64,000 nt of DNA from Candidatus Nanopelagicales bacterium (GTDB lineage: Bacteria > Actinomycetota > Actinomycetes > S36-B12 > GCA-2699445). How positions within the stretch are numbered: position 1 is the first letter of the stretch; every line of letters starts with the position of its first letter. The notes under the pieces were generated by a model. It made no database searches and had not been told where the DNA came from. It saw nothing but the letters and a program-made list of their open reading frames with translations. Shown piece after piece: positions 2,011 to 25,302 of this stretch. Both the position numbers and the translations under genes were made by a program. Location of the stretch: the NCBI GenBank assembly GCA_046330625.1, contig JAXLSJ010000007.1, positions 50,362 to 114,361 of the forward strand, read 5' to 3'.

Positions 2011-2014
2011 TCCG

Positions 2015-2150: not shown

Positions 2151-2229
2151 CCGCCGAGGTCTGCGGGACGGAGCCCCGCCCTTCGCGGGCAGGGCCTCGC
2201 ACCGGGACCCGCTCATCGAAGGGAACCCG

Positions 2230-3285: not shown

Positions 3286-4192
3286 GGAAAGCCGCCGCGG
3301 TCGGGATGGTGGGCGGACTCGTGGCACTGTCGGCCGCGCTGTCCCCCGCCCCTGCCGGCGCCGCCGACTACCGCTACTGGACCTACTGGTCGGGTTCCGC
3401 CGCCGGCTGGTCGTTCTCGTCCCTGGGTCCCGCATCGTCGGTCCCGGCCGACGGGAGCGTCGAGGGCTGGCGCTTCGCCATCAGCCGCGGGGTCCGCGGC
3501 CAGGGCGCCGAACCCCGGATCGCCGCCGCAGCGGCGTTCCGCCAGTTCTGCGGATCGCATCCGGCTCCGAGCGGGGACAAGCGGGTCGCGGTCGTGTTCG
3601 ATTTCGGGTTGACCTCGGAGGCTCCCGAGGGACAGTCGCCGCCGCAGCCGCGCGGCACCTGTGTCGAGGTTCCTGACGACGCGACCGGCGCCGCCATCCT
3701 GTCCCGGGCGGCGACGATCCGCACCGACGACGGTCTGGTCTGCGGCATCGGCGGCTACCCCGCAGGCGAGTGCGCTCCCGCAGTGACCGACGAACCGACC
3801 CCCACCCCGAAGGCGGCGCGGAGCTCGGGTCCGGGGCCCGACGAGTCTCCGGCCCCCCACCGCGCGACCCATGCCCATGAGAGGTCCGGTTCGGGCGGGG
3901 CCGAGCCGACGGACCCGACGGCCGCCACCGGGTCGACCCCTCGGGCGGACACCCCCGACAAGGCCGCACCCGAGAAGGAACCCCCCGGGAAGGACAAACC
4001 GTCGGACCGGGAGGCCCGGCCGACCCCGAGTCCGACGACTCCGGCGCCGGTCGCGAGCCCGGAGCCGACCTTCATCACGGCCGACGCGCAGTTGCCCGCG
4101 GACAGCCCCGGCGGGCCCGGCGTGTGGCCCCTGCTGCTGACCGCAGCGGTCGTGGCCGGTGCCGGCGGGTTCTTCTGGTGGCGCCGCCGCAC

Positions 4193-4196
<4 letters not shown>
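3282..4196 (+). CDS. SCO2322-family-like exported protein with Pro-rich stalk and C-terminal TM anchor
   Basis: ATGA overlap with the upstream gene. Signal peptide, then ADYRYWTYWSGSAAGWSFSSLGPASSVPADGSVEGWRFA, as I recall for SCO2322-family proteins that follow this prenyltransferase-like gene. Pro/Thr-rich region, then LPADSPGG...LLLTAAVVAGAGGFFWWRRRT. Confidence 0.6.
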
Positions 4197-6296
<2,100 letters not shown>

Positions 6297-6309
6297 TGGG
6301 CGCGCCCCG

Positions 6310-6873
6310 GTGATCCACGATCGGGTGTTCCTGACCGGTGGCGCCCGCTCAGGCAAGAGCGCGATGGCCGAGCGCCTGCTCGCCGATGCGGCCGCGGTGA
6401 CCTATGTCGCCACCGGACCGCGACCGGAGACCGCCGACCCGGAATGGGAGCAGCGGATCGCTGCCCATCGGACCCGCCGACCGGATCACTGGACCACCCT
6501 CGAGACCACCGACCTGCCCCCCGTGATCCACGCCGCCAGCCCACAGCACCCGGTACTGGTGGACTGCCTGACCCTGTGGGTGACCGCGCACCTCGATCGT
6601 CTGGACGCGTGGACCACCGACGATCCCACCTCTGCCCAGCAGGGGCTCGACGCCGAGATCGATGCGGTCGTTGCGGCAGTGAGAGCGTGTTCCGGAGGAC
6701 TGGTGGTGGTGAGCAACGAGGTCGGCAGCGGCATAGTCCCCGCGGATGCCGGCACCCGCCGGTTCCGAGACTGGCTGGGCATCGCCAACGCGCGGGTGGC
6801 CGCAGTGTGCGACCGCTCCTACCTAGTGGCCGCCGGCCGGGCGGTACGCCTCGAAGCAGTGGGCACGATCTGA
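6310..6873 (+). CDS. cobU: bifunctional adenosylcobinamide kinase / adenosylcobinamide-phosphate guanylyltransferase
   Basis: GTG start. P-loop [41 protein letters not shown]: typical CobU/CobP. Confidence 0.88.
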
Positions 6874-7919
6874 TGCGCGATGTCGACCAGGACGCCCGAG
6901 TTGCCGCGACCGCCCGGCTGGACCGCCTGACCAAGCCGCCTGGCGCACTGGGCCGACTCGAGGAACTGTCCGTCTGGGCGGCCGGGGTCCAGGGCCGCTG
7001 CCCGCCCTCGCGATTCGCCGCCGTGCACGTGGTCGTCGTGGCCGGCGATCACGGCATCGCCCGGAACGGCACCAGCGCCTATCCCCCTGAGGTGACCGCG
7101 CAGATGGTGGCCAACATCGTCGCAGGGGGCGCCGCAGTCAACGTCCTGGCGCGGGAACAGGGTGCGGACGTCACCGTGATCGACGCGTCGGTGGACTCGG
7201 ACTACGTGGGACTCGCCGTGCCCGAGGAGGTGGCCGCCCGACGGGTCCGTCGCAGCAGCGGCGCCATCGACCGCGAGGACGCGCTGACGCCCGACGAGGC
7301 GCGCGCCGCCCTCGAGCTCGGCGACACCGTCGCGGGCGAACGCGAGGCGGCCGGCGCCGACCTCGTGATCGTCGGCGACATGGGCATCGGCAACACCACC
7401 CCCGCCTCCGCCCTGATCGCGGCCCTGACTGACGGAGACCCTGTTGTGGTCACCGGGCGGGGCACCGGGATCGATGACGCCACCTGGATGCGGAAGGTCA
7501 CTGCTGTCCGCGACGCCCTGTGGCGCACCCGCGACGACCACACCGACGCGGCTCTGGCCCTGCAGCGTCTGGGTGGTGCCGACCTCGCCGTGATGACCGG
7601 CCTGCTGTCCGGATGCGCGCGGCGCGGGATCCCGGTCCTGCTCGACGGCGTCGTGGTCACGGCGGCAGCGTTGGCCGCGGAACGGATCGCACCGGGCTCG
7701 GTCGCGTGGTGGGCGGCGGGTCACCGGTCCGCGGAGCCCGCGCACGCAATCGCCCTGGCCGAACTGGGGCTGGACCCCGTCCTGTCGCTGTCGATGCGGC
7801 TGGGCGAGGGCTCCGGCGCCCTGACCGCGCTACCCGTCCTGCAGGCGGCCGTGGCTCTGCTGGCCGACATGGCCACCTTCGACTCCGCCGGCGTCTCCGG
7901 CGCCGTGGACGTCCCGTGA
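6873..7919 (+). CDS. cobT: nicotinate-nucleotide--dimethylbenzimidazole phosphoribosyltransferase
   Basis: ATG 6873 overlaps the cobU stop (TGATG). [48 protein letters not shown]. Confidence 0.92.
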
Positions 7920-8716
7920 CGTCCTGGACCTTGGCGCTCGGCCTCTTCACCGTGGCCCCGGTTGACACTCCCGCCGACCCACCGCGGTCACAGGTCCGAC
8001 GGGCCATCCTGCTTGCGCCCGTCGTGGGCCTTCTGCTCGGGCTGTGCGGAGCAGCGGTCCTGATCGGTGCTCGCGCCCTGTACTCACAACGGATCTTCGA
8101 CCAGCCGAACGACCCCCTGGCCCTGGCCTTGGCCTCGGTCTTCGCCATCGCCGCGGTGGAGATCGCCACGGGGGGACTGCATCTCGACGGCCTGTCGGAC
8201 TCCGCCGACGGTCTCGCCGCCCGAGGCGGACGGGACCGATCCCTCGACGCCATGCGCGACCCCCGGATCGGCGCGGTCGGAGCTGCGACGCTGATCCTCG
8301 CGCTGCTGGTGTCGGTGCTCGCCCTGGCACTGGCCGTCACCCGTGGGCATGGCACCGAGGCCATCACCACCTCCGTCGTGGCCGGTCGCGTGGCGATCGT
8401 CTGGGGCTGCACCTTGCCCGCCGCGCGGGCAGACGGCCTCGGCGTGTGGGTGAGCGGGGTGGTCGGGCGTCGCGCCGCCCTGCTCGAGACCGTGGCCGCA
8501 CTGGCTGTGCCGGCGGCGCTGTGCCTCTGGGACGACGACAGGTCCCGGTCGGCGACGGCTGTCGTGATGGCAGCCCTACCGCTCGCGCTGGTGGTCACTG
8601 CCGCCGTCCTGCTGCCGCTGTATCGACGGATCGGCGGGATCACCGGCGACCTGTTGGGAGCTGCCTGTGTGATCACCACCACAGCCTGTCTGGCCATCGT
8701 GGCCGCCGCCCCGTGA
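7916..8716 (+). CDS. cobS: adenosylcobinamide-GDP ribazoletransferase (cobalamin synthase)
   Basis: GTG 7916 overlaps the cobT stop (GTGA). Polytopic membrane protein with [11 protein letters not shown]..., [25 protein letters not shown] motifs. Confidence 0.87.
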
Positions 8717-8772
8717 GGCCCGCCCGACGCGGGTGAAGCCGCTTCGACGAGCGGCTATACTCGTCGGAGCCC

Positions 8773-8844
8773 TGGGGTATGGGGTAATTGGCAGCCCGAC
8801 GGTTTCTGGTTCCGTTAGTCTAGGTTCGAGTCCTGGTACCCCAG
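8773..8844 (+). tRNA. tRNA-Gln (anticodon CTG)
   Basis: TGGGGTATGGGGTAATTGGCAGCCC...TTCTGGT anticodon loop...GGTTCGAGTCCTGGTACCCCAG. Cloverleaf folds by hand with one U-U at the base of the anticodon stem. No encoded CCA. Confidence 0.85.
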
Positions 8845-8873
8845 CGACATCCGTGGTCATCGACCACGTGTCT

Positions 8874-8946
8874 GGCCCCGTTGTGTAGTGGCCTAGCACG
8901 CCGCCCTCTCAAGGCGGTAGCGCGGGTTCGAATCCCGTCGGGGCTA
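8874..8946 (+). tRNA. tRNA-Glu (anticodon CTC)
   Basis: GGCCCCGTTGTGTAGTGGCCTAGCACGCCGCC-CTCTCAA-GGCGGTAGCGCGGGTTCGAATCCCGTCGGGGCTA. 7-bp acceptor stem, CCGCC/GGCGG anticodon stem, TTCGAAT T-loop. Confidence 0.88.
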
Positions 8947-8950
8947 CAAA

Positions 8951-8985
8951 GAGTGGCGCGCATCCGTACAGGGTGCGCGCCACTC
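8951..8985. terminator. perfect 12-bp inverted repeat hairpin between tRNA-Glu and the convergent gene
   Basis: GAGTGGCGCGCA-(11 nt)-TGCGCGCCACTC. No U-tract. Placed between two convergent transcription units. Confidence 0.5.
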
Positions 8986-9015
8986 GCATGTTCACTGCGG
9001 GCCAACCCGGTCAAC

Positions 9016-9540
9016 TCAGGTCTCGCCACCGATGTCGACGTTGAACGCCTCCCAGACCAGGTCCGCACCGCGCTCGCGGTGTCGGGCGAACTGGTGGATC
9101 AGAGCCAGACCTCGGGCCCGGACATCGCGTTCGTCGATCGGCGTGTGCTCCATCAGGAACCGCATCAGGTGATCCACGTCCTGCGACAACCGCTGGTGAT
9201 CGCGCTGCAGCGATGCCACCAGTGGGGTCAGATGCGGACGTCCACGCAGGACGTCGGCGTGGAACGAATCCGGTCCCTCGTGGACATAGATGTGCGACTC
9301 CAGCGCACCGGCCAACTCGGCCAACTGTCGGGTGACGTCGGCGAGCCAGTCCCCCGGGTGTTCCGCGGGTCGCCGTAGCGACGCTTCGAGTCCCGCCATC
9401 GCGTCCTGCAGGTGACTGCGGTGGCGCTGCACCTTCCCGATGCGGGTGGTGCGGTCACGGAGGTCGATGACGGTGTCGTCGGGGTCCATGGGCACGGTGG
9501 TGATGGTCGGATCGAGCGAGGAGTTCGCCATGGTGATCAC
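9016..9540 (-). CDS. hypothetical protein, possibly hemerythrin-like four-helix bundle
   Basis: 174 aa, His/Glu/Asp-rich helical segments (ESHIYVHEGPDSFH, RDHQRLSQDVDHL, IHQFARHRERGADLVWEA). The family assignment is only a guess. Confidence 0.4.
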   Translation of the reverse strand: MITMANSSLDPTITTVPMDPDDTVIDLRDRTTRIGKVQRHRSHLQDAMAGLEASLRRPAEHPGDWLADVTRQLAELAGALESHIYVHEGPDSFHADVLRGRPHLTPLVASLQRDHQRLSQDVDHLMRFLMEHTPIDERDVRARGLALIHQFARHRERGADLVWEAFNVDIGGET

Positions 9541-9685
9541 CCCCAGGTGGGTACTTCGACGCTACTCCCCCGGGTCAGCCGGGACCAAGGCGACACATCG
9601 GGTCAAACTCCTGATCGGGATTGACTCCGCAGCGTGAGCGCACCTTCACTGATTGAGCTCCACGCGCCACCCCCTTGGAGGCACT

Positions 9686-11140
9686 ATGAAGAAGACACTC
9701 GCCATCGTCCTGGTGGGAATTCTGATGGCCCTGGTGGCGCCGGGCGCCGCCCGTGCCGCCGATCCGCCGATCGGCACCGCCTGGGCGGGCGTACAAGAGG
9801 GCAGCAGCATGCGCATTCAGTCGATCGCCACCAACGGGGCCGGCACGTGGGTGGCCATGACCGTGTTCCTAGGCCCGGGGACCCCCCAACGGAGCACCAA
9901 CAACGGCGTGACCTGGTCGGAAGCAGCAACCCCGCCACCTGTGGTGGACGGCACCAGCGACTACGCCTTCAACGACGTGGCCTGGTGCAATGACCGGTTC
10001 GTGGCCGTCGGGACGGCAATCGAGAACGACACCGCGCGGGCCGTGACCGCCTGGAGTCTCGACGGCAACACGTGGAGCACCGTTCTGCCCATCGGCAACG
10101 GCAGCACTGTGAATCCCAGCAGTCTCGCCTGCAACGGCAACAACGCGGTGGCCGTCGGTAGCGCCTTCGGGAGTGGCAACTACACAGTGATCACGAGTTC
10201 CGACGCTGGGGGGAGCTGGACGGCGACCACGGACTTCACCGGCTCTTTCGGGTACAGCTGGAGGGGTGTCACGTATCGCTCCGGCATCGGCTTCGTGGCA
10301 GTTCGCAGCGGCACCGGCACCGAGGACGTGATGATTTCCGATGACAACGGCGTGAACTGGACCGCCAATGACAGCGGCGTGAGTGGAAACTGGAGCGCAG
10401 CGGCGAACGACGGCACCACGATTGTGGCGGTGGCGGACGGGGGCACCAACCGCGTCATGACGTCGACGAACGGAGTCGACTGGACGGCTCGGACTGCCGC
10501 CGTCGACCTCTCCTGGAATGACGTCGCTTCTGGCAGCGGGACCTTCGTGGCAGTGGCATTGGACGGCACGTTCGACCAGCAGATCATGACGTCGACGAAC
10601 AGTGGCGCCAGCTGGACATCACGCCCGGCCCCCGCGGAGAACAACTGGGCCGCGGTCGGCTACGGCGCCGGTGGCGGTGGCGTGCCCGCGCGTTTCGTGG
10701 CCGGGGGCCGGGCATTCACCAGCACTCCGGAGGGAGTCAACTACCTGTACACCACACCCACCCCGACGGCACCGCTGGCGCCGGCCGTCGCGGTGGACGT
10801 CCTGAGTTGGACCACGCCCATCTGGGCCGCGACCAGTGGTCTCACCACCTACACCGTCGTGTACAAGAAGACCGCGGACGCCGGCAACCCGTCGGTCCCC
10901 TGGGGGGTGTACGCCCAGCGCACCACGGCATGGCCGGGCGGCGCCCTTCCCCTGAGCGTGAGGCTAAACGCCACTCCCGGCAACTGCGGCCTCACCAACA
11001 CCACGGCGGGGTGGACGAACTGCCCCATGCCCAGAGGCAACCTCCTCCCGGAGACGTCGTACACCTTCCGGGTGTTCGCCCGGTCGGCCACCAACCTCGG
11101 AACCATGTCGAGCCCGGTCACCTACATGGAGGTCGGCTGA
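9686..11140 (+). CDS. secreted BNR/Asp-box repeat beta-propeller protein with C-terminal FN3-like domain (paralog 1)
   Basis: ATG 9686 preceded by GGAGG. Signal peptide MKKTLAIVLVGILMALVAPGAARA. Repeated S-x-D-x-G-x-x-W boxes (STNNGVTWS, SLDGNTWS, SSDAGGSWT, SDDNGVNWT, STNGVDWT, STNSGASWT). Confidence 0.72.
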   Translation: MKKTLAIVLVGILMALVAPGAARAADPPIGTAWAGVQEGSSMRIQSIATNGAGTWVAMTVFLGPGTPQRSTNNGVTWSEAATPPPVVDGTSDYAFNDVAWCNDRFVAVGTAIENDTARAVTAWSLDGNTWSTVLPIGNGSTVNPSSLACNGNNAVAVGSAFGSGNYTVITSSDAGGSWTATTDFTGSFGYSWRGVTYRSGIGFVAVRSGTGTEDVMISDDNGVNWTANDSGVSGNWSAAANDGTTIVAVADGGTNRVMTSTNGVDWTARTAAVDLSWNDVASGSGTFVAVALDGTFDQQIMTSTNSGASWTSRPAPAENNWAAVGYGAGGGGVPARFVAGGRAFTSTPEGVNYLYTTPTPTAPLAPAVAVDVLSWTTPIWAATSGLTTYTVVYKKTADAGNPSVPWGVYAQRTTAWPGGALPLSVRLNATPGNCGLTNTTAGWTNCPMPRGNLLPETSYTFRVFARSATNLGTMSSPVTYMEVG

Positions 11141-11261
11141 CCTGGACCGACGGGCAGCGGGGACCAAGGCGACACATCGGGTCAAACCCCCAAGTGCGTT
11201 TGACTCCGTAGCGTAACCACATTTTCACTGAATGCGTTCAACGCGCGGGCCCGGAGGCACC

Positions 11262-12713
11262 ATGAAGAAGACACTGGCCATCGCCCTGGCGGCCATGCTG
11301 ACGGCAATGGTTGCCCCCGGCACCGCCCAGGCGGCCGATCCGCCGATCGGCACCGCCTGGGCGGGCGTGCAAGAGAGCGGCAACAAACGGATCTTGTCGG
11401 TCGCCACCAACGGGACCGGCACCTGGGTAGCCATCACCCTTGCCGGAGCTCCCGGGACCCCGCAGCGGAGCACCGACAATGGGGTGACCTGGACCACCGC
11501 AGCCACCCCGCCTCCCGTGGTGGAGCCCCAAACGACGGGCAATGCGTTCAACGACGTCGCTTGGTGCAATGACCGTTTCGTGGCCGTGGGGAAGGCATTC
11601 ACGGAAACCAGCGATGTCACCGTGACGGCCTGGAGCACCGACGGCAACACGTGGACCACAGTCCTTCCCACCGGTAACGCCAGCGGCGTGTCGCCCCAGG
11701 ACATCGCCTGCAACGGCAACAACGCCGTCGCCGTCGGCGGCGCCCTCGAGGGTGGCGACTACACGGTGCTCACCAGCTCCAACGCCGGGCTGAGCTGGGC
11801 GGGGCGCACGGACTTCACCGGCTCCCAAGGCTACGACTGGCGGGGAGTCACGTACCGGTCCGGCGTTGGCTTCGTGGCCGTTCGCGGCGGCACCGGCACC
11901 AATGATGTCATGATCTCGACCGACAATGGCGCGAACTGGACCGGCGACGACAGCGCTGTGAACGCAACGTGGAGCACTGTGACGAACGACGGCACCACCA
12001 TCGTCGCCGTCGCCGACGGTAGCCCCACCGACAACCGGGTCATGACCTCCACCGACGGAATCGCGTGGACGGCTCGAACCGCGGCCGCCAACATCTCGTG
12101 GAACGACATCGCGGCTGGTGGCGGGACTTTCGTGGCTGTCGCCTCGGGGGCAAACGCCGACACCCAGATCATGACGTCAACGGACAGTGGCGCCACCTGG
12201 ACATCACGCACAGCGGCAGCCAAGAACAACTGGAACGCGGTCGGATACGGTGGCTCGCCGTCACGGTTCGTAGCAGGGGGCAACACGTTCAACAGCATTC
12301 CCGCGAACGTCAACTACATGTACACCACTCCCACCCCCACGGCGCCGCAGTCCCCGTCCGTCGTGGACGAGACCCTGAGTTGGACCACACCCATCTGGAC
12401 CGCGACCAGCGGCCTCACCACCTACACCGTCGTCTACAAGAAGACAGTCGACGCCGGCAACCCGGCGGTCCCCTGGGGGGTGTACGCCCAGCGCACCACA
12501 GCATGGCCCGGCGGCACCCTTCCGCTGCAGGTTGAGCTCAACGCAACTCCGGGCAGTTGCGGCATCACCAACACCACGGCGGGATGGACGAACTGCCCCA
12601 TGCCCAGAGGCGCCCTGCTCCCGGACACGTCGTACACCTTCCGGGTGTTCGCCCGTTCGGCCACCAACCTCGGCACCATGTCGAGCCCCATCACCTACAC
12701 GATCATCGCCTGA
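11262..12713 (+). CDS. secreted BNR/Asp-box repeat beta-propeller protein with C-terminal FN3-like domain (paralog 2)
   Basis: ATG 11262 preceded by GGAGG. MKKTLAIALAAMLTAMVAPGTAQA. Same Asp-box series (STDNGVTWT, STDGNTWT, SSNAGLSWA, STDNGANWT, STDGIAWT, STDSGATWT). The C-terminal part is nearly identical to paralog 1. Confidence 0.72.
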   Translation: MKKTLAIALAAMLTAMVAPGTAQAADPPIGTAWAGVQESGNKRILSVATNGTGTWVAITLAGAPGTPQRSTDNGVTWTTAATPPPVVEPQTTGNAFNDVAWCNDRFVAVGKAFTETSDVTVTAWSTDGNTWTTVLPTGNASGVSPQDIACNGNNAVAVGGALEGGDYTVLTSSNAGLSWAGRTDFTGSQGYDWRGVTYRSGVGFVAVRGGTGTNDVMISTDNGANWTGDDSAVNATWSTVTNDGTTIVAVADGSPTDNRVMTSTDGIAWTARTAAANISWNDIAAGGGTFVAVASGANADTQIMTSTDSGATWTSRTAAAKNNWNAVGYGGSPSRFVAGGNTFNSIPANVNYMYTTPTPTAPQSPSVVDETLSWTTPIWTATSGLTTYTVVYKKTVDAGNPAVPWGVYAQRTTAWPGGTLPLQVELNATPGSCGITNTTAGWTNCPMPRGALLPDTSYTFRVFARSATNLGTMSSPITYTIIA

Positions 12714-12799
12714 CGGGTCGACGGAGTCCCAGAATCGGTCACTCCATGTCGCCGTGTGAACTACGCTTCAGGCCACGGAGCGGGGGCATGGAGGCATAC

Positions 12800-12940
12800 A
12801 TGGTCGACGCTGGTCATCGGGGCTGGGTGACGCCCCAATTGGTGGCGCTGGGCACGTCCCATCATTCACGCAATGCCTCAGCTCCGGGTGACTCCGTCGA
12901 CAGCACCTACAGCGAGGTCCCACAGGGCTACGTGTCCTGA
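12800..12940 (+). CDS. putative RiPP (lasso-like) precursor peptide, locus 1
   Basis: MVDAGHRGWVTPQLVALGTSHHSRNASAPGDSVDSTYSEVPQGYVS. GGAGG 5 nt upstream of ATG 12800; in-frame alternative starts at 12788 and 12746. Stop lies 8 nt before the AsnB-like gene. WVTPQLVALG fits the YxxPxLxxxG lasso leader pattern (W for Y). Confidence 0.4.
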   Translation: MVDAGHRGWVTPQLVALGTSHHSRNASAPGDSVDSTYSEVPQGYVS

Positions 12941-12948: not shown

Positions 12949-14703
12949 GTGGTGTTCGAATCCGTCACCATTCGCTGGCGCGCCGAGCGTCGCCTCGAGA
13001 TCATCAAGTTCCCTGGCGACAGATCCGACAGCCGACCGACCGACGGCGGCGTGGCCACGGGCGCCATCACGGAAGCCGAAGGCAACGTTGTCGTCGAGCA
13101 CTTATCGCACCATGATCATCCCGACGCAAACCTGCCCGACACCCCTTGGCTGGCGGTTGCGCAACGTGGGCACGGTGTCCTGGCTGCCGCCTGCTCGACG
13201 CTTCTGCCCAGTGGGATCTTCTGGGCCGCGACAGCGCATGGACTGCTGATCGCATCCGACCCCGGCGCGATCGTGACCCGCCTCCCCTCGCCACCCGCAC
13301 TGTCCGACGACTACCTGCGTGACTACCTGCTCAACGACTGCCCACCCGAGGCCACGCCCTATGAGGGGGTCCAACGGATCCCCGCGGGTCACACCGCAGT
13401 CTGGAACGATCCTTTCCGATCGCCGCAGCTCCACCCGTGGGTGGGGCCGGATCACTGGGACACCCCGCACCTCATGGGTCCGACCGCGGTCGAGGAGTAC
13501 CGTCGCGCCTTCGACCGGGCGGTCGCGACCCTCGGAAGCCGGACCTGACCTTTGATCACCCAGGTGTCCGGCGGGCTGGACTCGACCTTCGTGGCGGCAA
13601 CCCTCGCACGACAGACCACGCCCGACCGCCCCGTCATCGGACTGATCCATGTGCCGCTGGCCGAGGCCCAGCTGCAACCTCGGGGCGGCATGGACCCCGA
13701 CGAGTCTCACCTGGCACATACCCTCGCCGCCGCCTACCCGGGTCGGCTGGTGGTGCGGGAGGTGCGTAACGAGGAACTGATCTCACCGCTCGATGCGTCA
13801 GCCGAGATGTCCACCCGGTCGTGGCTCCCGGTCTTCAACCCGGCCAACCAATCCTGGATGACCGCCATGAACCGCATCGCCGCCCACGAAGGCGCCGAGT
13901 TGCTGTTCGCCGGTGGGAACGGAAATGCCGCCTTCAGCCATGACCATCCCTATGCCGCCCGTTACTACCTGTCCCGCGGGCGGTTGCCCACCTTGTTGTC
14001 GTTGGGCACGGTCGATGGTTCGCCGTCGATGTCGAGACTTCGGGGTCGGGTGTTGTCACCCCTACTGCCGCGGACCCCCCAGCCCCCGACCAGCGCCCAT
14101 CTGGGGCTGCCGCCGACTCCGCCACCCCGGCACGAGCACCCCCGAATCCACTACCTGCGCTGGCTCGCCCGCGCGAACAGCGGTTTGATGGCAGCGCAGA
14201 ATCCGGCCGCCACCGAAGGAATCCTCAAGGCCGACCCGTTTCTCGCCCGGGCTGTGTTGGACGTGGCGGCGGCGATCGAACCTGCGGAGTGGCAGCGCGG
14301 CGGTGGTTCCCGGAGTTTCGCGCGGCGCCTCGGCCTCGGCCGGGTTCCCGACGACATCAGGCTCCGGAAGCGACGCGGCGCGCAGGGCTGGGACGCCTGG
14401 TATGTGGTGCGCAACGACCGGGACCGGTACCTGGCCGAGATCGACCTGCTGCGCGACACCCCAGCCCTCGGCGGCTGGGTGGACGATCGGCGGCTCGCTG
14501 CGACCGTTGCGGCCTGGCCGTGGGGGGCAACTCACGGGCCGGGTCCGGGAGAACTCCACACCGTCCATCGTCTGCTGGCTCTGGCGGCGTTCGCCCGCGA
14601 TACGACTCGGCGGCTTGCGACGCTGACTTCCCAGCCCGTGGCGGAGTCGGGGGTGATAGCTTCTCGTCAGGTCGGCTCACTCGCCGGCCGCCGACGGGGG
14701 TGA
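12949..14703 (+). pseudogene. asparagine-synthetase-like / lasso-cyclase-like enzyme interrupted by an in-frame TGA
   Basis: Track ORFs 12949..13548 and 13552..14703 are in the same frame, separated only by TGA 13546..13548 (…ATLGSRT*PLITQVSGGLDSTFVAA…). SGGLDS is the AsnB-type PP-loop. The C-terminal region (DPFLARAVLDVAAAI...RKRRGAQGWD) is AsnB/lasso-cyclase-like. No N-terminal Cys2 glutaminase nucleophile. Confidence 0.65.
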
Positions 14704-18610: not shown

Positions 18611-20209
18611 TCAGTCGTCCACGTGCAGGAACGAGTAGCGCAGGGCGTCGTCGAGAGCCAGCCACGACGCCTCGATGACGTTCTCGTGCACTCCCACGGT
18701 CTGCCATTCGTCGACACCGTCAGACGTGCTGACCAGCACGCGGGTGACCGCATCGGTGCCCTTGACCCCTTCGAGGATGCGCACCTTGTAGTCGATGAGA
18801 TCGAGTCGCTCCAACTCGGGGTGAGCCCCGAGCAACGCCTGCCGCAGCGCCCGGTCCAGTGCGTTCACCGGACCGTTGCCCTCGGCGGTCGAGATCACCC
18901 GCTCACCCTCGACCACGACCTTGACCGTGGCCTCGCTGACGACGGTCCCATCGGCCTGACGTTCCACAAGGGTGCGCCACGACTCCAACTCGTACACCGT
19001 GGGCGGCAGCGCCCCGGTTTCGCCCCGCACCATGAGTTCGAACGACGCGTCGGCGGCCTCGAAGGACCATCCCTGGGCCTCGAGGTCCTTGACCCGGTTG
19101 GTCACGCGAGCCACGGAGTCGGGGTCGGTCGACAGGTCCAGGCCGAGTTCCCGGCTCTTCATCTCGATGGACGCACGTCCCGCCATCTCGGTCACCAGCA
19201 CCCGCATGTCGTTGCCCACCACAGCCGGGTCGATGTGGTTGTAGAGGTCGGCGGACACCTTCAGCGCACTGGCATGCAGCCCGGCCTTGTGGGCGAACGA
19301 CGAGATGCCGGCGTACGGCTGGTGCGTGTCAGGGGGCAGATTCGCGATCTCGGCGATGGCGTGCGAGACGCGCACAGTCTCGGCCAGCGAGCCGGGGGGC
19401 AGCACCTGCAAACCCATCTTGAGTTCCAGGTTGGCGACCACCGCGAAGATGTCGGCGTTGCCGGTCCGTTCGCCGTAGCCGTTGGCCGTCCCCTGGACGT
19501 GGGTGACGCCGGCCTCGACCGCGGCCAGGGTGTTCGCCACCGCGCACCCGGTGTCGTCCTGGCAGTGGATCCCGAGTCGCACCCCGCTGCGTTCCTTGAC
19601 GTCGGCCACCACCCGCGCGATCCCGCTGGGGAGCATGCCGCCGTTGGTGTCGCACAGGACTCCCACACTGGCGCCGGCCTCGGCAGCGGCGACCAGCAGC
19701 CGCACTCCGTAGTCGGGGTTGTGGTCGTAGCCGTCGAAGAAGTGCTCGCAGTCCACAAAGACGCGGCGACCTTCGCCGACCAGGAACGCCACGGTGTCGG
19801 TGACCATCGAGATGTTCTCGTCCAACGTGGTGCGCAACGCCTGCTCCACGTGGCGGACGTCGGACTTGGCGACCAGCGTGACGACCGGAGCCTCGGACGC
19901 CAGCAGCGCCAGGACCTGTTGGTCCTGCTCGACGGCCCGGCCGGCGTGGCGGGTCGCCCCGAAAGCCACGAGTTGCGCGTTGCGGAGTTTCAGGTCGGAG
20001 CGGGCCTGGGCGAAGAACTCCGTGTCCTTGGGCATCGCGCCGGGCCAGCCGCCCTCGATGAAGCCCACCCCGTAGTCATCGAGCAAGCGCGCGACCGCCA
20101 ACTTGTCGGCCACCGAGTAGGAAATGCCTTCGCGCTGGGCGCCGTCGCGCAACGTCGTGTCGAACACGTGGAACGTGTCGTTGGGCCATTCACCCGGCTG
20201 CGTACTCAT
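18611..20209 (-). CDS. cimA: citramalate synthase (LeuA/CimA family, short form)
   Basis: Internal ATG 20209 gives MSTQPGEWPNDTFHVFDTTLRDGAQREGISYSVADKLAVARLLDDYGVGFIEGGWPGA... About 530 aa with a C-terminal LeuA-dimer-like regulatory domain. Confidence 0.8.
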   Translation of the reverse strand: MSTQPGEWPNDTFHVFDTTLRDGAQREGISYSVADKLAVARLLDDYGVGFIEGGWPGAMPKDTEFFAQARSDLKLRNAQLVAFGATRHAGRAVEQDQQVLALLASEAPVVTLVAKSDVRHVEQALRTTLDENISMVTDTVAFLVGEGRRVFVDCEHFFDGYDHNPDYGVRLLVAAAEAGASVGVLCDTNGGMLPSGIARVVADVKERSGVRLGIHCQDDTGCAVANTLAAVEAGVTHVQGTANGYGERTGNADIFAVVANLELKMGLQVLPPGSLAETVRVSHAIAEIANLPPDTHQPYAGISSFAHKAGLHASALKVSADLYNHIDPAVVGNDMRVLVTEMAGRASIEMKSRELGLDLSTDPDSVARVTNRVKDLEAQGWSFEAADASFELMVRGETGALPPTVYELESWRTLVERQADGTVVSEATVKVVVEGERVISTAEGNGPVNALDRALRQALLGAHPELERLDLIDYKVRILEGVKGTDAVTRVLVSTSDGVDEWQTVGVHENVIEASWLALDDALRYSFLHVDD

Positions 20210-20241
20210 GATCGTCCTTCCCTGACTGCGTCGGTCCAACG

Positions 20242-20272
20242 AAAAACCCCCTCGCCCACGGGCGGAGGGGGT
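20242..20272 (-). terminator. rho-independent terminator / attenuator between the rSAM gene and cimA
   Basis: Minus strand CCCCCTCCGCC-CGTG-GGCGAGGGGG followed by TTTTT. Immediately preceded by a second hairpin GCGCGACAGC-ACCC-GCTGTCGCGC (20275..20298). Confidence 0.6.
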
Positions 20273-20298
20273 TCGCGCGACAGCGGGTGCTGTCGCGC

Positions 20299-20337
20299 CT
20301 AGCCGATAATGACGACGCCGGTCTCGGTGTGTCTCAC
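20299..20337 (-). CDS. candidate Val/Ile-rich leader peptide of cimA (MRHTETGVVIIG)
   Basis: GTG AGA CAC ACC GAG ACC GGC GTC GTC ATT ATC GGC TAG, with the stop directly abutting the two hairpins and U-tract. No obvious SD. Confidence 0.3.
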   Translation of the reverse strand: MRHTETGVVIIG

Positions 20338-20379
20338 CCGATCATGGTGACACCGCGCCGCACGCGGCGCAAACGCCCG

Positions 20380-21573
20380 TCACACCCCCGCCGCCACCAA
20401 CTCCGCGACATCATCCTCACGTCCGAACGACCCGGGCTCGTAGGAGCAGAGCGGATCGTCGGCGAACACGTCGTGACTGTCGCCGAACGCCCGGGGTCGG
20501 GAGCCGCCGCACACGGCCCGGAACTCGCACGACCCGCACCGACTGTGGGGGGCGTCCGGGTCCCGCAGCGACCGGAACAACTCCGAGTCGCGATAGATCG
20601 CGGCGAGCGAGTCGTCACCCACGTTGCCCGCCGACACCGGCAGGAACCCGCTGGGGTAGACGTCGCCGGTGTGGGACACGAACACGAACCCCCGGGCCGC
20701 GCTCACGCGCAACGGCGGTCGGCGCATGTGATCACGCTGTCGGCGCGGGGACAGCAGCGTGAGGCGACGGCTGAGCATCTGGTAATCGGTGCCGAGTCCC
20801 AGCTCGGCCACGGGGTCGAGGCCCTCGCGTTCGCACAGCACCCGCTGGATGCACACCCGGCGGAAGGACGGTGCCTCCGTGGTCTTCAAGGACACGATCT
20901 TGTCCGCGTCGTAGCAGAAGTGCAGGACGTCCTCGGCCTGCTGCGACGTCAGCTGCGCCAGATCGGCGCCCCGGCCTGTGGGAACCAGGAAGAACACCGA
21001 CCACGTCATGGCCCCGAGCCGGTCGACGGTGTTCACGATGTCGGGCAGCTGCTGCAGGTTCGCCGGGGTCACCGTGGTGTTGATCTGGACCTTCAAACCC
21101 AGGTCCCGCGCCGTGCGCCACCCGGCCATCGTGCGGCGGTGGCTGCCGCAGACACCCCGGAAGTCGTCGTGAGTCGCCGGGTCGGACCCGTCCAGGCTGA
21201 GCGATATGGCGTGGCAGCCCGCCTCACGCAGCCGGGTGAGGTTACGCCGGTCGAGGGCCTCGGTGCCCGACGGCGACACCGCCACGGGGAGGCCGATCTC
21301 GGCCCCGTACGCGACGAGCTCGAACAGGTCGGGTCGTTCGAAGGGATCGCCCCCGGTGATCACGAAGAACGGTGGCGGCGAGCCGAAGGCCAGCACCTGG
21401 TCCATGAGTCGCCGAGCCGCTGCACCGTCGAGTTCGGCCGGGTCGCGGTCCGGGACAGCGTGCGCCCGGCAGTGGCGGCACGCCAACTGACAGGCCCGCG
21501 TGGCCTCCCAGATGACGATGAACGGCCGCTGGGTCAGATCCAGATGGCTGCGCCGCAGCGCCCGGGCAGCCAT
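20380..21573 (-). CDS. radical SAM / SPASM domain protein
   Basis: CxxxCxxC cluster in WEATRACQLACRHCRA. C-terminal Cys-rich SPASM-like region (RCGSCEFRAVCGGSRPRAF...DPLCSY). N-terminus resembles AhbD/NirJ/PqqE-like maturases. Confidence 0.85.
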   Translation of the reverse strand: MAARALRRSHLDLTQRPFIVIWEATRACQLACRHCRAHAVPDRDPAELDGAAARRLMDQVLAFGSPPPFFVITGGDPFERPDLFELVAYGAEIGLPVAVSPSGTEALDRRNLTRLREAGCHAISLSLDGSDPATHDDFRGVCGSHRRTMAGWRTARDLGLKVQINTTVTPANLQQLPDIVNTVDRLGAMTWSVFFLVPTGRGADLAQLTSQQAEDVLHFCYDADKIVSLKTTEAPSFRRVCIQRVLCEREGLDPVAELGLGTDYQMLSRRLTLLSPRRQRDHMRRPPLRVSAARGFVFVSHTGDVYPSGFLPVSAGNVGDDSLAAIYRDSELFRSLRDPDAPHSRCGSCEFRAVCGGSRPRAFGDSHDVFADDPLCSYEPGSFGREDDVAELVAAGV

Positions 21574-21576
21574 GGT

Positions 21577-21870
21577 TCAGGCACGCACCAGCCGCAACCG
21601 CCATTCGTCGGGGCCGCGCTGCAGGTACTCCACCGCGAGTGCCCCGTCATAGCGGTCATGGGCCTGGGCGAGCAGGGGTTTCGGATCGTGGGGCGCCACC
21701 AGCACCAGCGCCGAACCGGGGGCGATGCTGTCCAGCGCCCCGAAGACGGCGCCGTGGCGCACGGCATGCGGGATCACCCGAGCATCGAAGACGGGATCGG
21801 CGGGCTCAGCCCCGCAGTTGCAGGAACAGCCGCCATTGGCCGCAGCGGCCAGAGGGAGATCAGGAGTCAT
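21577..21870 (-). CDS. DUF2249 domain protein with Cys-rich N-terminus
   Basis: Internal ATG 21870 gives MTPDLPLAAAANGGCSCNCGAEPADPVFDARVIPHAVRHGAVFGALDSIAPGSALVLVAPHDPKPLLAQ...GPDEWRLRLVRA (DUF2249-like HDPxPL, GPDxW). The 95-codon upstream extension of track ORF 21577..22155 overlaps the AsnB-like gene and was rejected. Confidence 0.7.
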   Translation of the reverse strand: MTPDLPLAAAANGGCSCNCGAEPADPVFDARVIPHAVRHGAVFGALDSIAPGSALVLVAPHDPKPLLAQAHDRYDGALAVEYLQRGPDEWRLRLVRA

Positions 21871-21946
21871 GTTCCCATATTTACACCGGACCAGGCAAAG
21901 AGCAATGTGAATAAATATCTGGAGTCCCGGATCTCGCGCTTGCGCG

Positions 21947-23452
21947 CTAGACCGAACGGGCGGATGTCCAGTAGAGGTCGAGCGGGGCAGCGATGTCGGC
22001 CAACTCGGGGTACATCGTGTGGATGAGGTCGGTGGTGGGAGGCCACTCGGGCAGATGGTGCCGAACCCGATCAGGCTCCGGCGCCTTCGTGACGAACTTC
22101 TGGGTGGGGACCAACTCGGCGAGGAGTTCCTGGAACAGCCACCGCGACTTGCCATCGCGACGGAAGACAGGGGGTGGCAGCGAACATGCCACCTCGATGA
22201 CTCGGCGATCCAGTAACGGGAATCGGTACTCGACCCCGAACTGTCGACCCATCAGCCACCATGCCGCGGTCCGCCGTTCCACATGACCGAGGTGCAGCAG
22301 CCGCGACTGTCGCTGGTGCGGAGGCTCGAGCAACCGGAACGTCCGACGCTTGGACCGGAACGCGGACCTGTTCACATCTCGCCACGCGCGATCCATGGCT
22401 GTCGCAGGTGGCCGAAGAACGCGCCACGCAGACCGGACCGGTCTCGCTCCCGCCCGCGCCAGCACCCGCCACTCGCCCGTCCCTCCCGCAGCCGCTTCCG
22501 CCTTCACCTGTTGCCATGCCTGACGGAACTCGCCCTGGCCCACCATCCACCCGAACGGCGGCGTGCCGCCCGCCGAGGCAGCCTCATCGCCACCCCACCC
22601 GGAGAGGATCGTCGTCACCCCGGCCTCACGCGCCCAGCCGAGGATCACGGTCTCGTACTGGACCATCGTGTGCAGCAGGAAGATCAAGGGATCGAGATGG
22701 GGATCTGACAGGGCCGCCCTCATATCTGCTTTGGTCACGCAGCGCATCCGAACTCCGAGCGCGGCACCGATGCGAATTGACCGGTCATGCTCGTCGGGCG
22801 AACCGTCGGGCGATCTCACGTCTGAAGCGATCCATCCGTAGCCGGCGGCCAAAGCCTGACCCTGGGAACCCAAGAGCCGCTGAGCTGCAGCAGCAACCAT
22901 GGTCGAGTCGAGCCCCCCGCTCAGGTGGGCCGCAACCGGTGCACCACCCGCCGAAGCCAGGGCGTCCGAGACAGCCGCCAACACGGCCGACCTCAGAAGC
23001 GACTTCGCTTGGGCCACCCCCATCGGCCGACGTTTGACCCGCCGACTGTCGAAGTATCGAGAAAGGCGCCGGGTCGTCCCCTCGAGGACCACGATGCTGC
23101 CCGGAGGAACCTGGAACACGCCATTGAATACAGTCCGTGCCGGATCGGCAGGGGCTTGCATGAACAGTCGTGCGGCATAGTCGTGGTCGAGGGTTCCGTC
23201 CCAGCAGGACTCTCGGACAGCACGCAGGTCGGCATCCACCCGGAGGCCACCGGTCGCCGACCATCCGTAGTAGAGCGGGACCACACCCATGGGGTCGCGC
23301 ACGAGGACCGCGCGAACACCGTCGCTCAGATGGGCAGCGAACTCCCCCACCAGCCCGCTGGTCCTGCCGGTCGCCAGAGCCTTCTGCAGGAACTCGACGG
23401 GATCCGCGTCCGACGCGGTCGACAGCCACCCCCAGAAGTCGTGACATCTCAT
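21947..23452 (-). CDS. asparagine-synthetase-like / lasso-cyclase-like enzyme (intact)
   Basis: 501 aa. RDPMGVVPLYY (AsnB N-domain), PP-loop AAHLSGGLDSTMVAAAA, SGWGGDE, C-terminal FPLLDRRVIEVACSLPP. Starts MRCHDF, so it lacks the MCG glutaminase N-terminus. Confidence 0.72.
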   Translation of the reverse strand: MRCHDFWGWLSTASDADPVEFLQKALATGRTSGLVGEFAAHLSDGVRAVLVRDPMGVVPLYYGWSATGGLRVDADLRAVRESCWDGTLDHDYAARLFMQAPADPARTVFNGVFQVPPGSIVVLEGTTRRLSRYFDSRRVKRRPMGVAQAKSLLRSAVLAAVSDALASAGGAPVAAHLSGGLDSTMVAAAAQRLLGSQGQALAAGYGWIASDVRSPDGSPDEHDRSIRIGAALGVRMRCVTKADMRAALSDPHLDPLIFLLHTMVQYETVILGWAREAGVTTILSGWGGDEAASAGGTPPFGWMVGQGEFRQAWQQVKAEAAAGGTGEWRVLARAGARPVRSAWRVLRPPATAMDRAWRDVNRSAFRSKRRTFRLLEPPHQRQSRLLHLGHVERRTAAWWLMGRQFGVEYRFPLLDRRVIEVACSLPPPVFRRDGKSRWLFQELLAELVPTQKFVTKAPEPDRVRHHLPEWPPTTDLIHTMYPELADIAAPLDLYWTSARSV

Positions 23453-23486
23453 CGCAGCGGGAAACAGTCACTCATGATGACCCTGC

Positions 23487-23606
23487 CTAGGAGGACAAAA
23501 TACCGCCGATCGCTTCGGGGTCTAGCGCTTCGCCCCCTTCCGACGACGCACCGGAGCTGAGCGCTACGAGCTCCGGCCGTACCCAGGGCTCCTGCTGGGT
23601 CGACAT
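23487..23606 (-). CDS. putative RiPP (lasso-like) precursor peptide, locus 2
   Basis: Hand-translated 39-aa ORF absent from the track: MSTQQEPWVRPELVALSSGASSEGGEALDPEAIGGILSS, ATG 23606 to TAG 23487. Ends 34 nt upstream of the AsnB-like gene. Shares W-V-x-P-x-L-V-A-L with the locus 1 peptide. Confidence 0.45.
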   Translation of the reverse strand: MSTQQEPWVRPELVALSSGASSEGGEALDPEAIGGILSS

Positions 23607-23666
23607 GGCTGGGAATGTACACGCTGCTGGATCGTAGATGCGGAGATGCGTACGAACGGGCCAGTC

Positions 23667-24770
23667 TCAGGCGACGCGCATCATCCAGTTGTGCGGATCA
23701 GGCGCCACGCCGGTCTGGATGTCGAGCAGCGCACGTCGCAGTTGCTGGGTGACCGGACCGGACCCGCCGTCGGCCACCGTCCACTCCCCGCTGTGTGCCT
23801 TGACGTGACCGACCGGCGTGATCACCGCGGCCGTCCCGCACGCGAACACCTCGGTGATCTCGCCCGACTCGCAGCCCTTGCGCCAGTCCTCGACGCTGAT
23901 CCGGCCTTCCTCGACGTCGTAGCCGAGGTCGGCGCCCAGGGTGAGCAGCGAGTCGCGGGTGATGCCCGGCAGGAGGCTGCCCGTGAGCGACGGGGTCATC
24001 AGGCGGGCGCCCGGACCGCTCCCGTACACGAAGTACAGGTTCATGCCGCCCATCTCCTCGATCCAGCGATGCTCGTTGGCGTCGAGCCACACCACCTGGT
24101 CACAGCCGTGGTCGATGGCCTCGGCCTGCGCCAGCAGCGACGCGGCGTAGTTGCCGGCGCATTTCGCTTCGCCGGTGCCGCCGGGGGCTGCTCGCACGTA
24201 GTCCTCGCTGAGCCACACCGTGACCGGCTGCAGGCCGCCGGTGAAGTACGCCCCGGCCGGCGACGCGATCAGCAGGTACAGGTACTCGTCGCCGGGGCGC
24301 ACCCCGAGGCCGACCTCGGTCGAGAACATGAAGGGTCGCAGGTACAGCGACTTCTCGGGATCGGCAGGCACCCACGGACCGTCCTGCGCCAACAACGCCT
24401 TGATCGAGCCGAGGAAGAGTTCGTCGGGGAGCTCCGCCATGGCCAGGCGCGCCGCCGACCGGCGGAACCGCTCGGCGTTGGCCAGGGGGCGGAACGTGTA
24501 GATCCCCCCGTCGGAGTGCCGGTAGGCCTTGAGGCCTTCGAAGATGCTCTGGCCGTAGTGCAGCGAGTTGGTGGCCGGGTCCAGCTGCAGCGGTCCGTAG
24601 GGCTCGACGGCCGCGTCGTGCCAGCCCTTGTCCTGCATCCAGCGCAGTCGCACCATGTGGTCGGTGAACACGTTGCCGAACCCGGGGTCGGCGAGGATCA
24701 TCTCGCGTTCGTTCGCGGGCAGCGGCGCGGGGTTGGGCCGCAGTGGGAACAGCGGCGGCGTCTCCGTCAT
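23667..24770 (-). CDS. ilvE: branched-chain amino acid aminotransferase
   Basis: FTDHMV...[14 protein letters not shown]..., [15 protein letters not shown], about 367 aa actinobacterial IlvE type. Confidence 0.92.
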
Positions 24771-24840
24771 GGGAACTCCAAAGGGACCAGGTCGCCCTAT
24801 TGTGGCCGATGGTCGTGGCCGGGAGAACCAGCGCGGGCCG

Positions 24841-25302
24841 ATGAGTCATGATGTCGCCATGGACGTGACCCGCGACAGCACCGCGACCCCCGAGGCGGTG
24901 TGGGCGATCCTGACCGACTTGGATCGGTTTGCCGACGCTGCCGACATCGAGGCCATCGAACGACTCGACGACGGCACCGGATTCGACGTCGGGACCCGGT
25001 GGCGCGAGACCCGCCGCATGTTCGGACGTTCGGCGACCGAGGACATGGGGGTCACCGCGATCGAACCCGGTCGCAGTTACAGGGTCGAGGCCGAGAGCCG
25101 GGGCACGCACTACCGCTCGGTCGTGTCGGTGGCCCCCCACGACGGCGGCTCGCGCCTGACGATGTCCTTCCAGGCGTCGGGACAGAACCTGGTCTCGAAG
25201 GTCATGGGAGCCACCCTCGGGCGGCTGTTCACCCCGATGGTGAAGCAAGCCCTGGGCAAGGACCTCGAAGCAGTCGCGCGCTCCGCGGAGCGCAGTTCCT
25301 GA
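24841..25302 (+). CDS. SRPBCC family protein
   Basis: Internal ATG 24841 gives [32 protein letters not shown]... About 150 aa, polyketide-cyclase/START-like N-terminal signature. Confidence 0.65.

Follow-up and report, generated by a model that had tools for sequence, protein, structure and literature searches.

Between cimA and ilvE of the window examined here (the whole 64,000-nt stretch of contig JAXLSJ010000007.1 of a Candidatus Nanopelagicales bacterium), a minus-strand block carries a short precursor-like peptide gene, an AsnB-like gene, a DUF2249 gene and a radical S-adenosylmethionine (rSAM)/SPASM gene. The block most probably represents two independent units lying side by side: a DUF2249-rSAM operon (unit 1), and a cassette of two genes, encoding the peptide and the AsnB-like enzyme, that has been inserted next to it (unit 2). 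It is the cassette that is worth keeping, as it represents a rare subfamily of leader-bearing, lasso-type precursor-cyclase pairs that lack the lasso B genes (B1 and B2) in cis. The features of the block and its flanks are given below, with the supporting evidence in brackets; L002 is a related locus of an uncultured Actinomycetes metagenome-assembled genome.

18611-20239, minus strand: cimA (citramalate synthase), flank (TIGR00977, 606 bits)
20242-20305, minus strand: tandem hairpins, predicted intrinsic terminator of the DUF2249-rSAM operon (RNA folding)
20380-21573, minus strand: radical SAM/SPASM gene, 397 amino acids (Pfam Radical_SAM and SPASM; TIGR04053)
21577-21870, minus strand: DUF2249 gene, 97 amino acids, DrpA-type, with an N-terminal C-x-C (PF10006, 3.4e-23)
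21871-21946, minus strand: intergenic region of 76 nt with the DUF2249 promoter-like element (conserved in L002)
21947-23452, minus strand: AsnB-like gene, 501 amino acids (Pfam Asn_synthase, 1.8e-24)
23487-23606, minus strand: precursor peptide gene, 39 amino acids, MSTQQEPWVRPELVALSSGASSEGGEALDPEAIGGILSS (list of open reading frames)
21934-23666, no strand assigned: inserted two-gene cassette (absent from L002)
23667-24770, minus strand: ilvE, flank (family profile search)

A preliminary description of this DNA had presented the four open reading frames (ORFs) as a co-directional block wedged between cimA and ilvE, interrupted by a 76-nt AT-rich gap between the AsnB-like gene and DUF2249 and closed by a strong terminator. 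This layout was borne out in every respect. The ORF list, Pfam and NCBIfam placed all four genes on the minus strand with the expected domains, both flanks were identified, and the gap is exactly 76 nt, with a G+C content of 0.51 compared with 0.69 for the window. The start of DUF2249 was taken as the ATG that matches its orthologues, and its stop codon lies 3 nt ahead of the rSAM start. In the terminator region (20242-20305), RNA folding gives a pair of hairpins (dG -44.9 kcal/mol, z -4.98), with U5 after the second, and none of 200 shuffled sequences was equally stable. A simple terminator scan skipped this region because the stem carries a bulge.

That the peptide and AsnB-like genes are a later insertion is seen by comparison with L002, the closest of 80 loci recovered when the rSAM protein was searched against a single genome from each species. 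At the amino acid level, L002 is 93% (leuB), 90% (ilvE) and 92% (cimA) identical to the window. It has neither the peptide nor the AsnB-like gene: its genes are arranged leuB-ilvE-DUF2249-rSAM-cimA, and 66 nt separate the ilvE stop from the DUF2249 start. The DNA sequences align on both sides of the insertion: window nt 24810-23667 correspond to L002 nt 8490-9626 on the ilvE side, and window nt 21798-20378 to L002 nt 9755-11196, across DUF2249 and the rSAM gene. The segment from about nt 21934 to nt 23666 has no counterpart in L002 and contains exactly the 39-amino-acid ORF and the AsnB-like gene. Since L002 has ilvE-DUF2249-rSAM-cimA without it, this segment is an inserted cassette of about 1.7 kb. 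Its G+C content at third codon positions (GC3) is 0.77, compared with 0.89-0.93 in ilvE, cimA and the rSAM gene. No mobile-element signatures or terminal repeats were found at its ends, and Rfam detected no RNA family across 12-27 kb of the window. Independent wastewater-metagenome contigs cover both junctions, and a joint that skips nt 21934-23666 was seen in none of four wastewater runs at about 3-7x depth. Unit 2 would thus represent a horizontally acquired two-gene cassette that entered between the ilvE stop and the DUF2249 promoter.

The wider distribution of the genes agrees with this. AsnB-like genes and precursor-like ORFs are absent from all 80 rSAM loci, and neither DUF2249 nor the rSAM gene occurs in any of seven loci of the AsnB-like subfamily or its outgroup. 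The preliminary description had proposed conservation of gene neighborhood as a test of the block. The pairing of the AsnB-like gene with the peptide recurs, while the association of either with DUF2249 and the rSAM gene never does. Of the two interpretations offered at that time, two unrelated operons split by a promoter-bearing gap is upheld by the synteny with L002 and the conserved promoter-like element, and a single four-gene pathway for a peptide made on the ribosome and modified after translation (RiPP) is not. As a whole, the earlier interpretation is partly supported.

The window peptide displays the leader pattern W8-x-x-P11-x-L13-x-x-L16, then Ser22-Glu23 directly before Gly24-Gly25, and a putative acceptor, Glu31. 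An ORF of about 40 codons adjoins the AsnB-like gene in all seven readable subfamily loci, i.e. the window and the six that follow (L083 is partial).

L082: MTEPDSAPWISPSLVGIRAAEDAAAGLANVPEVSDGLLSS
L085: MVTEPKQSWASPMLTPLATQKDTAGGAEPSPEASAGLLS
L001: MASSEQGTWCAPKITSLIDTTSAEVGPNPGIPEDSSMNGS
L084: MDAKESWTAPRLNHLIESDESAGGPNSETAEDAFFRSTPPS
L086: MATKLWETPGLRPILPIEDSEGGFKPTPKEEKLGNPSG
L083 (partial): TPELVRIVDGTQIKSGATRDINEEGLKNPS

These peptides have in common W-x-x-P-x-[LI]-x-x-[LI], a Gly (usually Gly-Gly) 16-17 residues after the Trp, and a tail of 7-10 residues. Every one has Gly at W+17 and an Asp or Glu at core positions 7-9. The layout of lasso leaders and cores (Y/W-x-x-P-x-L, a Gly start, Asp/Glu at 7-9) is present in all nine subfamily and outgroup peptides. 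A strict form of the motif pattern gave five matches in 1.61 Mb of six-frame translation, all of them beside subfamily genes, and the pairwise score between the window and L001 peptides was attained by 28 of 20000 shuffles. Other neighbors in common were not found: besides the peptide, the subfamily loci have no gene that recurs, and their genomic contexts are unrelated. Judged from sequence, the peptide and AsnB-like genes are a real, conserved pair of the lasso type. In three loci the peptide ORF precedes the AsnB-like gene on the same strand; in the other four it is located downstream of that gene and converges on it. Because of the latter arrangement (4/7 loci) it is not an upstream regulatory leader peptide of the AsnB-like gene, a role that had been considered.

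Two other ways of reading the precursor were rejected. Cleavage after the Gly-Gly, as in leaders of the double-glycine type, would make Pro residue 1 in two members, and an N-terminal core, as in triculamin, would have no acidic residue at positions 7-9 from the N-terminus. The lasso leader motif has been described as Y(-17), P(-14), L(-12) and T(-2) (PMC12070363). The window peptide lacks Thr at position -2, where it has Ser22 if Gly24 is +1, or Glu23 if Gly25 is +1. Read from the sequences in the first register (the first Gly, at W+16, as core residue 1), Ser or Thr occupies -2 in four of the seven subfamily peptides. Precursors of the form W..P.L...T-x-G-G....P-E occur beside related cyclases in dozens of metagenome loci, and the window segment S-S-E-G-G-E-A-L-D-P-E aligns to D-T-K-G-G-T-S-N-H-P-E of these precursors. 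From this alignment, the leader is probably cut before Gly24, so that the ring would be Gly1-Glu8; a core that starts at Gly25, with a Gly1-Glu7 ring, is the alternative.

The AsnB-like enzyme falls below the cutoff of every Pfam and NCBIfam family, but has the Asn_synthase domain, the PP-loop and the fold, and its gene adjoins a precursor. It is not an asparagine synthetase B (TIGR01536, 108 bits against a cutoff of 267), and the N-terminal Cys region is absent. In an alignment to E. coli AsnB, profile position 15 falls on residue 84, and because the enzyme begins at the equivalent of residue ~84 it is missing the Cys1 nucleophile region; about 50-80 residues are lost from the start of the N-terminal amidotransferase domain (roughly the first 70 in the enzyme of the window). 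Two motifs, SGGLDS of the PP-loop and SGWGGDE, are invariant across the subfamily. An AlphaFold2 (AF2) model (predicted local distance difference test 80, predicted template modelling score 0.83) has the two-domain AsnB fold, with TsnB9, ASNS, beta-lactam synthetase and CarA as the closest folds. Members of the superfamily that includes AsnB, beta-lactam synthetase and the lasso cyclases perform ATP-dependent carboxylate activation and intramolecular amide formation, and by analogy this is the chemistry expected here. Taken with its partner peptide, the enzyme is a probable lasso-type macrolactam synthetase.

The subfamily is small. A word-indexed search of 5.8 billion clustered proteins gave a single full-length relative, P0002, at 32% identity, the other matches being ordinary AsnB-like proteins of ~600 amino acids at ~30% identity. 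An exhaustive HMMER search of 1.84 billion representatives added P0121, P0122, P0123, P0124 and P0127 (E-values from 1e-125 to 7e-57), and these five together with P0002 were taken as the subfamily. A second word-indexed search, with the subfamily profile, did not return the members found by HMMER, and a scan of Joint Genome Institute (JGI) metagenomes with the same profile gave no new member, the best matches having 28-32% identity. The scan did supply the canonical relatives that serve as a control set below. The closest relative of the window enzyme is 46-47% identical, and the others ~30-35%. The nearest relatives outside the subfamily are found in lasso-type surroundings: P0125 (locus L087) beside two lasso-type precursors and an HPr-kinase-like gene, and P0006 (locus L092) beside a PqqD-ABC fusion, Transglut_core3, a kinase and a sulfotransferase. 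In the canonical lasso cluster of L092 (nt 7697-9473), the N-terminus of the cyclase (MSAIYGVLHP...) was called as a separate 51-amino-acid ORF 5' of a 490-amino-acid gene, which suggests a frameshift or a miscalled start and not a truly truncated cyclase.

Canonical lasso clusters carry the RiPP recognition element (RRE) protein B1 (PqqD) and the leader peptidase B2 (Transglut_core3), and the cluster in the window has neither. The earlier observation that both are missing from the 64 kb was confirmed by every search made. Pfam detected no PqqD or Transglut_core3 domain among about 20 candidate window ORFs, and tblastn with B1 and B2 of related canonical clusters found no match in the window. 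Hidden Markov models (HMMs) of B1 and B2 were then seeded from L091 (a canonical locus described below) and L092, and iterated over six-frame translations of 80 metagenome loci with related cyclases, the window and 11 further loci. As a positive control, 49 of the 80 metagenome loci yielded B1 with these models and 45 yielded B2. B1 and/or B2 was recovered in every one of the 20 metagenome loci whose flanks both reach 3 kb or more; the median separation from the cyclase was ~700 nt (range ~0.2-5 kb). The same models listed no match in the six-frame window at E<=10 with filters off, and reached a best score of ~6 bits on L001 and L082-L086. Comparing only well-flanked loci (at least 3 kb on both sides), the count is 0 of 3 in the subfamily (the window, L084 and L085) versus 20 of 20 (Fisher p ~6e-4). 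Because these models detect B1 and B2 in related loci, the lack of cis-encoded B genes characterizes the subfamily and is not a sampling artefact.

The proposed action of the pair is as follows. The leader (W-x-x-P-x-L ... S-E) would be removed before Gly24 or Gly25, a step that is required because the isopeptide forms from the N-terminal amine. The AsnB-like enzyme would use ATP to adenylate the side chain of Glu31, and the freed amine would attack it to give a macrolactam of 7 or 8 residues with an 8-residue tail (AIGGILSS), which may thread the ring. Removal of the leader might depend on B1 and B2 encoded elsewhere, or follow a B-independent route.

Turning to unit 1 (nt 20242-21946), the rSAM protein belongs to TIGR04053: it scores 458 bits against a curated cutoff of 395, with residues 12-380 matching model positions 2-366 of 366, and has both the CX3CX2C motif (ACQLACRHC) and a SPASM domain (Pfam, 3.9e-05). 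The next-best family is AhbD (TIGR04545), followed by NirJ2 and NirJ. The AhbD score (300 bits) is below the haem b synthase cutoff of 500, and all RiPP-maturing families (MftC, PqqE, AlbA and the sactisynthases) score 117 bits or less (MftC, 117 against 265; PqqE, 94 against 381). Among the 80 rSAM loci, the gene lies directly 3' of narI of a narGHJI operon in 30 and directly 3' of an NMO-like gene in 20, and narI is found within 10 kb in 40. DUF2249 directly precedes the rSAM gene in six (L002, L004, L006, L007, L008 and L057), three of which (L004, L007 and L008) also have narH and narI; nar genes were not found in the 64-kb window. The DUF2249 protein itself (PF10006, 81.7 bits against a gathering score of 29.5) is of the DUF2249/DrpA type. 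DrpA of Thermus is encoded downstream of nar and affects nar regulation (PMC6282519), and denitrifying haloarchaea induce DUF2249 genes (PMC11218638). AhbD has homologues in Gram-positive bacteria that possess the coproporphyrin pathway, where they have been proposed to be anaerobic coproheme decarboxylases and suggested to replace the aerobically working ChdC (PMC13564367). Based on the likeness to AhbD, the nar and NMO contexts, the link between DUF2249 and nitrate, and the AhbD literature, the rSAM enzyme would have an anaerobic, tetrapyrrole-directed role; it is most likely an AhbD-like, oxygen-independent coproheme decarboxylase and would not act on a peptide. Unit 1 as a whole would then be an ancestral operon of two genes that has a promoter and terminator of its own and serves anaerobic or nitrate-respiratory metabolism. 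The DUF2249-TIGR04053 pair is not to be annotated here as RiPP machinery. The association with narGHJI supports the idea that TIGR04053 supplies an oxygen-independent step, probably from coproheme to haem, for anaerobic respiration in Actinomycetota.

The promoter-like element ahead of DUF2249 consists of TTGCTC (nt 21905-21900), a 16-nt spacer and TAAATA (nt 21883-21878), with 7 nt to the ATG. Its counterpart in L002, located directly after the ilvE stop, is TTGACC, 16 nt, TAAATT and 6 nt to the ATG, and an AT-rich box, TATTTATTCACATTG, upstream of the -35-like hexamer is conserved in both. A strict scan for the sigma-70 consensus did not report the element upstream of DUF2249, because the -10 hexamer ends in A. 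The conserved element fits a promoter belonging to DUF2249 itself, probably a leaderless one. Further upstream, the window has GGGACTCCAG (nt 21905-21935, minus strand) where L002 has GGTCCCC; each resembles one half of a DosR-type box. The DUF2249 orthologues linked to the rSAM gene have an N-terminal C-x-C ahead of the Pfam domain, CSCNC in the window (nt 21820-21840, minus strand) and CGC in both L002 (nt 9720-9745) and L004 (nt 8150-8170), which may be a ligand for a metal or cluster.

A second lasso-type pair is present in the window, on the opposite strand:

12788-12940, plus strand: second lasso-type precursor, 50 amino acids, MEAYMVDAGHRGWVTPQLVALGTSHHSRNASAPGDSVDSTYSEVPQGYVS (homologous peptides lie beside orthologous cyclases in L090 and L091)
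12949-14703, plus strand: second AsnB-like gene (lasso cyclase family), 584 codons, with an in-frame TGA at 13546-13548

The precursor includes the segments GWVTPQLVALGTS and DSTYSEVPQGYVS and the motif WVTPQLVAL. The TGA of the cyclase gene lies six codons ahead of SGGLDS. This cyclase family has more than 30 clusters, and its full-length homologues of 510-580 amino acids span the stop position. The site is outside the coverage of metagenome contigs, and the TGA may be a sequencing error. As with the first pair, no B1 or B2 was found nearby. Locus L090 is syntenic (BNR-like protein, peptide, cyclase), and L091, of the same cyclase family, carries PqqD (B1), Transglut_core3 (B2) and an ABC transporter in cis. 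Locus L089, which also belongs to this family, has no detectable B1 or B2 within 7 kb on either side; B-less arrangements may therefore also occur in the second cyclase family. Two AsnB-like cyclases are encoded in L089 (nt 1-10000), together with a pair of HPr-kinase-like genes, one of which is a fusion with a sulfotransferase, as well as an NTP_transf_5 gene and an ORF resembling a precursor. Directly 5' of the second precursor of the window are two paralogous genes (nt 9653-11140 and 11232-12713, plus strand) for secreted proteins of ~495 amino acids, in which BNR-like S-x-D-x-G-x-T-W repeats are discernible by eye and which have a weak fn3 match. L090 repeats the order BNR-like protein-peptide-cyclase (62% identity), and the precursor of L091 has a related Gly_rich_2 protein ahead of it.

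Two minor features concern the flanks of the block. The longest ORF of cimA starts at a TTG (nt 20239) that abuts the terminator; the start of the L002 orthologue corresponds to ATG 20209 (MSTQPGEW/MSTAPAEW), and this ATG is the more likely start. Between ilvE and leuB, the window has an SRPBCC (Polyketide_cyc2) ORF on the opposite strand (nt 24628-25302, plus strand); this interval does not align to that of L002 (nt 7720-8490), which differs in length, indicating a further small variable spot in the syntenic region.

The inserted pair may work alone or with B proteins encoded elsewhere. It could be the satellite part of a split canonical lasso system, relying on B1 and B2 from another locus that are perhaps shared with the pair at 12.8-14.7 kb. 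This is a serious possibility, although we would place it somewhat below an even chance. The leader keeps the W-x-x-P-x-L motif that is read by RREs in canonical systems (PMC12070363), the Ser or Thr two residues before Gly-Gly in 4/7 peptides is like the canonical T(-2), and since L091, of the family of the second cyclase of the window, carries B1 and B2 in cis together with a transporter, such genes exist in this lineage. A satellite would nevertheless have to be reconciled with a pair that stands alone in every subfamily locus, in unrelated contexts and with no common neighbor, and that arrived in the window as a two-gene insertion; related cyclases have B1 and B2 within ~0.2-5 kb in 20/20 well-flanked loci, and none was found in the 64 kb here. 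The isolation of the pair and its arrival as a two-gene insertion favor a self-sufficient, B-independent system, in which the truncated cyclase reads the leader, and the leader is taken off by a housekeeping protease or by the cyclase complex; such a system would be a parallel to triculamin, though with an N-terminal leader. The cassette consistently has two genes, and the shortened N-terminus of its cyclase is reminiscent of TriC, which is likewise N-truncated and belongs to the triculamin system without B genes (bioRxiv 10.64898/2026.07.03.736388), a report that also cites the efficient production of pseudomycoidin without leader, RRE or peptidase. Even so, this explanation is doubtful: activity of the pair is a proposal from sequence, the persistence of an RRE-type leader motif makes more sense with an RRE still there to read it, the cassette has no candidate protease or transporter, and the truncation is much smaller than in TriC. 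Equally tentative is its extension, that the pair represents a second kind of B-independent lasso or lasso-like biosynthesis, unrelated to triculamin, in which a mobile two-gene module cyclizes a leader-bearing precursor without a dedicated RRE or peptidase.

The cassette might also be a decaying, non-functional lasso remnant, like the window pair with the in-frame stop. Its atypical GC3, the near-orphan status of the enzyme (46-47% identity to the closest relative, ~30-35% to others) and the TGA in the other lasso-type cyclase of the window would agree with decay, but this is improbable given an intact ORF of 501 codons that begins with the N-terminal sequence of the family (M-[RK]-x-[RH]-x-x-W-G-W), catalytic motifs that are invariant in a subfamily only 30-46% identical, a confident AF2 model, and a peptide motif conserved across seven loci. 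A single RiPP pathway of all four genes, with formation of an amide or macrolactam by the AsnB-like enzyme and modification of the same peptide by DUF2249 and rSAM, is very hard to maintain. The genes are co-directional, no terminator separates the AsnB-like gene from DUF2249, and SPASM rSAM enzymes are frequent peptide maturases; on the other hand, the two halves never co-occur in the 80 and 7 loci, the ancestral state (L002) is without the cassette, DUF2249 has its own conserved promoter-like element, and the rSAM protein groups with AhbD and NirJ in a context of nar and NMO genes.

Some points weigh against the preferred reading, i.e. two independent units of which one is a lasso-type pair without B genes. 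The scan found no terminator between the AsnB-like gene and DUF2249, and read-through from one to the other may take place. Because no RNA run covers the region, the operon structure of unit 1 is based on the conserved promoter and synteny only, and TIGR04053 is not mentioned in the literature that was searched. On the NCBIfam lasso cyclase model, the AsnB-like enzyme reaches 82 bits against a cutoff of 525. Flanks of 3 kb or more on each side are available for just three of the subfamily loci. The predicted core tail is without large aromatic plug residues, and threading into a lasso is for that reason uncertain.

If the two genes suffice, this would be the smallest leader-bearing lasso-type system, and would bear on why canonical systems need a complex of RRE and peptidase. 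If they do not, it would be a clear case of satellite precursor-cyclase pairs that borrow B1 and B2 in trans. In either case, the subfamily is invisible to lasso mining tools because these require B genes, and the authors of the triculamin study found no non-canonical lasso cluster other than triculamin-like ones (PMC12070363).

The systems nearest to unit 1 resemble it in part. Among the AhbD and NirJ enzymes of tetrapyrrole biosynthesis, AhbD is the best named relative of the rSAM protein after TIGR04053, and both have a radical SAM core and SPASM, but the window enzyme is below the AhbD cutoff, and in Actinomycetota the partners of TIGR04053 are DUF2249, narGHJI or an NMO-like gene. DrpA of Thermus thermophilus is, like the window protein, a single-domain DUF2249 tied to nar operons (as are the relatives in L004, L007 and L008), but its partner is DrpB and not an rSAM enzyme, and the window has no nar genes within its 64 kb.

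For the inserted pair, the canonical paeninodin-like clusters (kinase- or sulfotransferase-associated, with genes A, C, B1, B2 and D) are the closest in kind. They share the precursor layout (W/Y-x-x-P-x-L, S/T-x before Gly-Gly, Asp/Glu at 7-9) and an AsnB-like cyclase with an intact ATP site, and they hold the nearest outside relatives, P0125 (L087) and P0006 (L092). They differ from the subfamily loci, which have no B1, B2, transporter or kinase in cis, in which the cyclase N-terminal domain is ~50-80 residues shorter, and where most members have Ser, Ala or Glu in place of Thr(-2). The triculamin system (TriA, TriC, TriD and TriT) likewise lacks B1 and B2 and has an N-truncated macrocyclase (PMC12070363; bioRxiv 10.64898/2026.07.03.736388), two properties that are also found in the window pair. 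In other respects the two diverge. The triculamin precursor has an N-terminal core, a C-terminal follower helix, PGDG and many basic residues, whereas the window peptide has an N-terminal leader motif and an acidic core, with the conserved motif at the N-terminus, no Asp or Glu at positions 7-9 from that end, and no PGDG. Triculamin clusters include a GNAT acetyltransferase and a transporter, while the inserted segment comprises two genes only, the cyclase being accompanied by the peptide gene alone, and the truncation of ~50-80 residues in the window enzyme compares with 150-250 in TriC.

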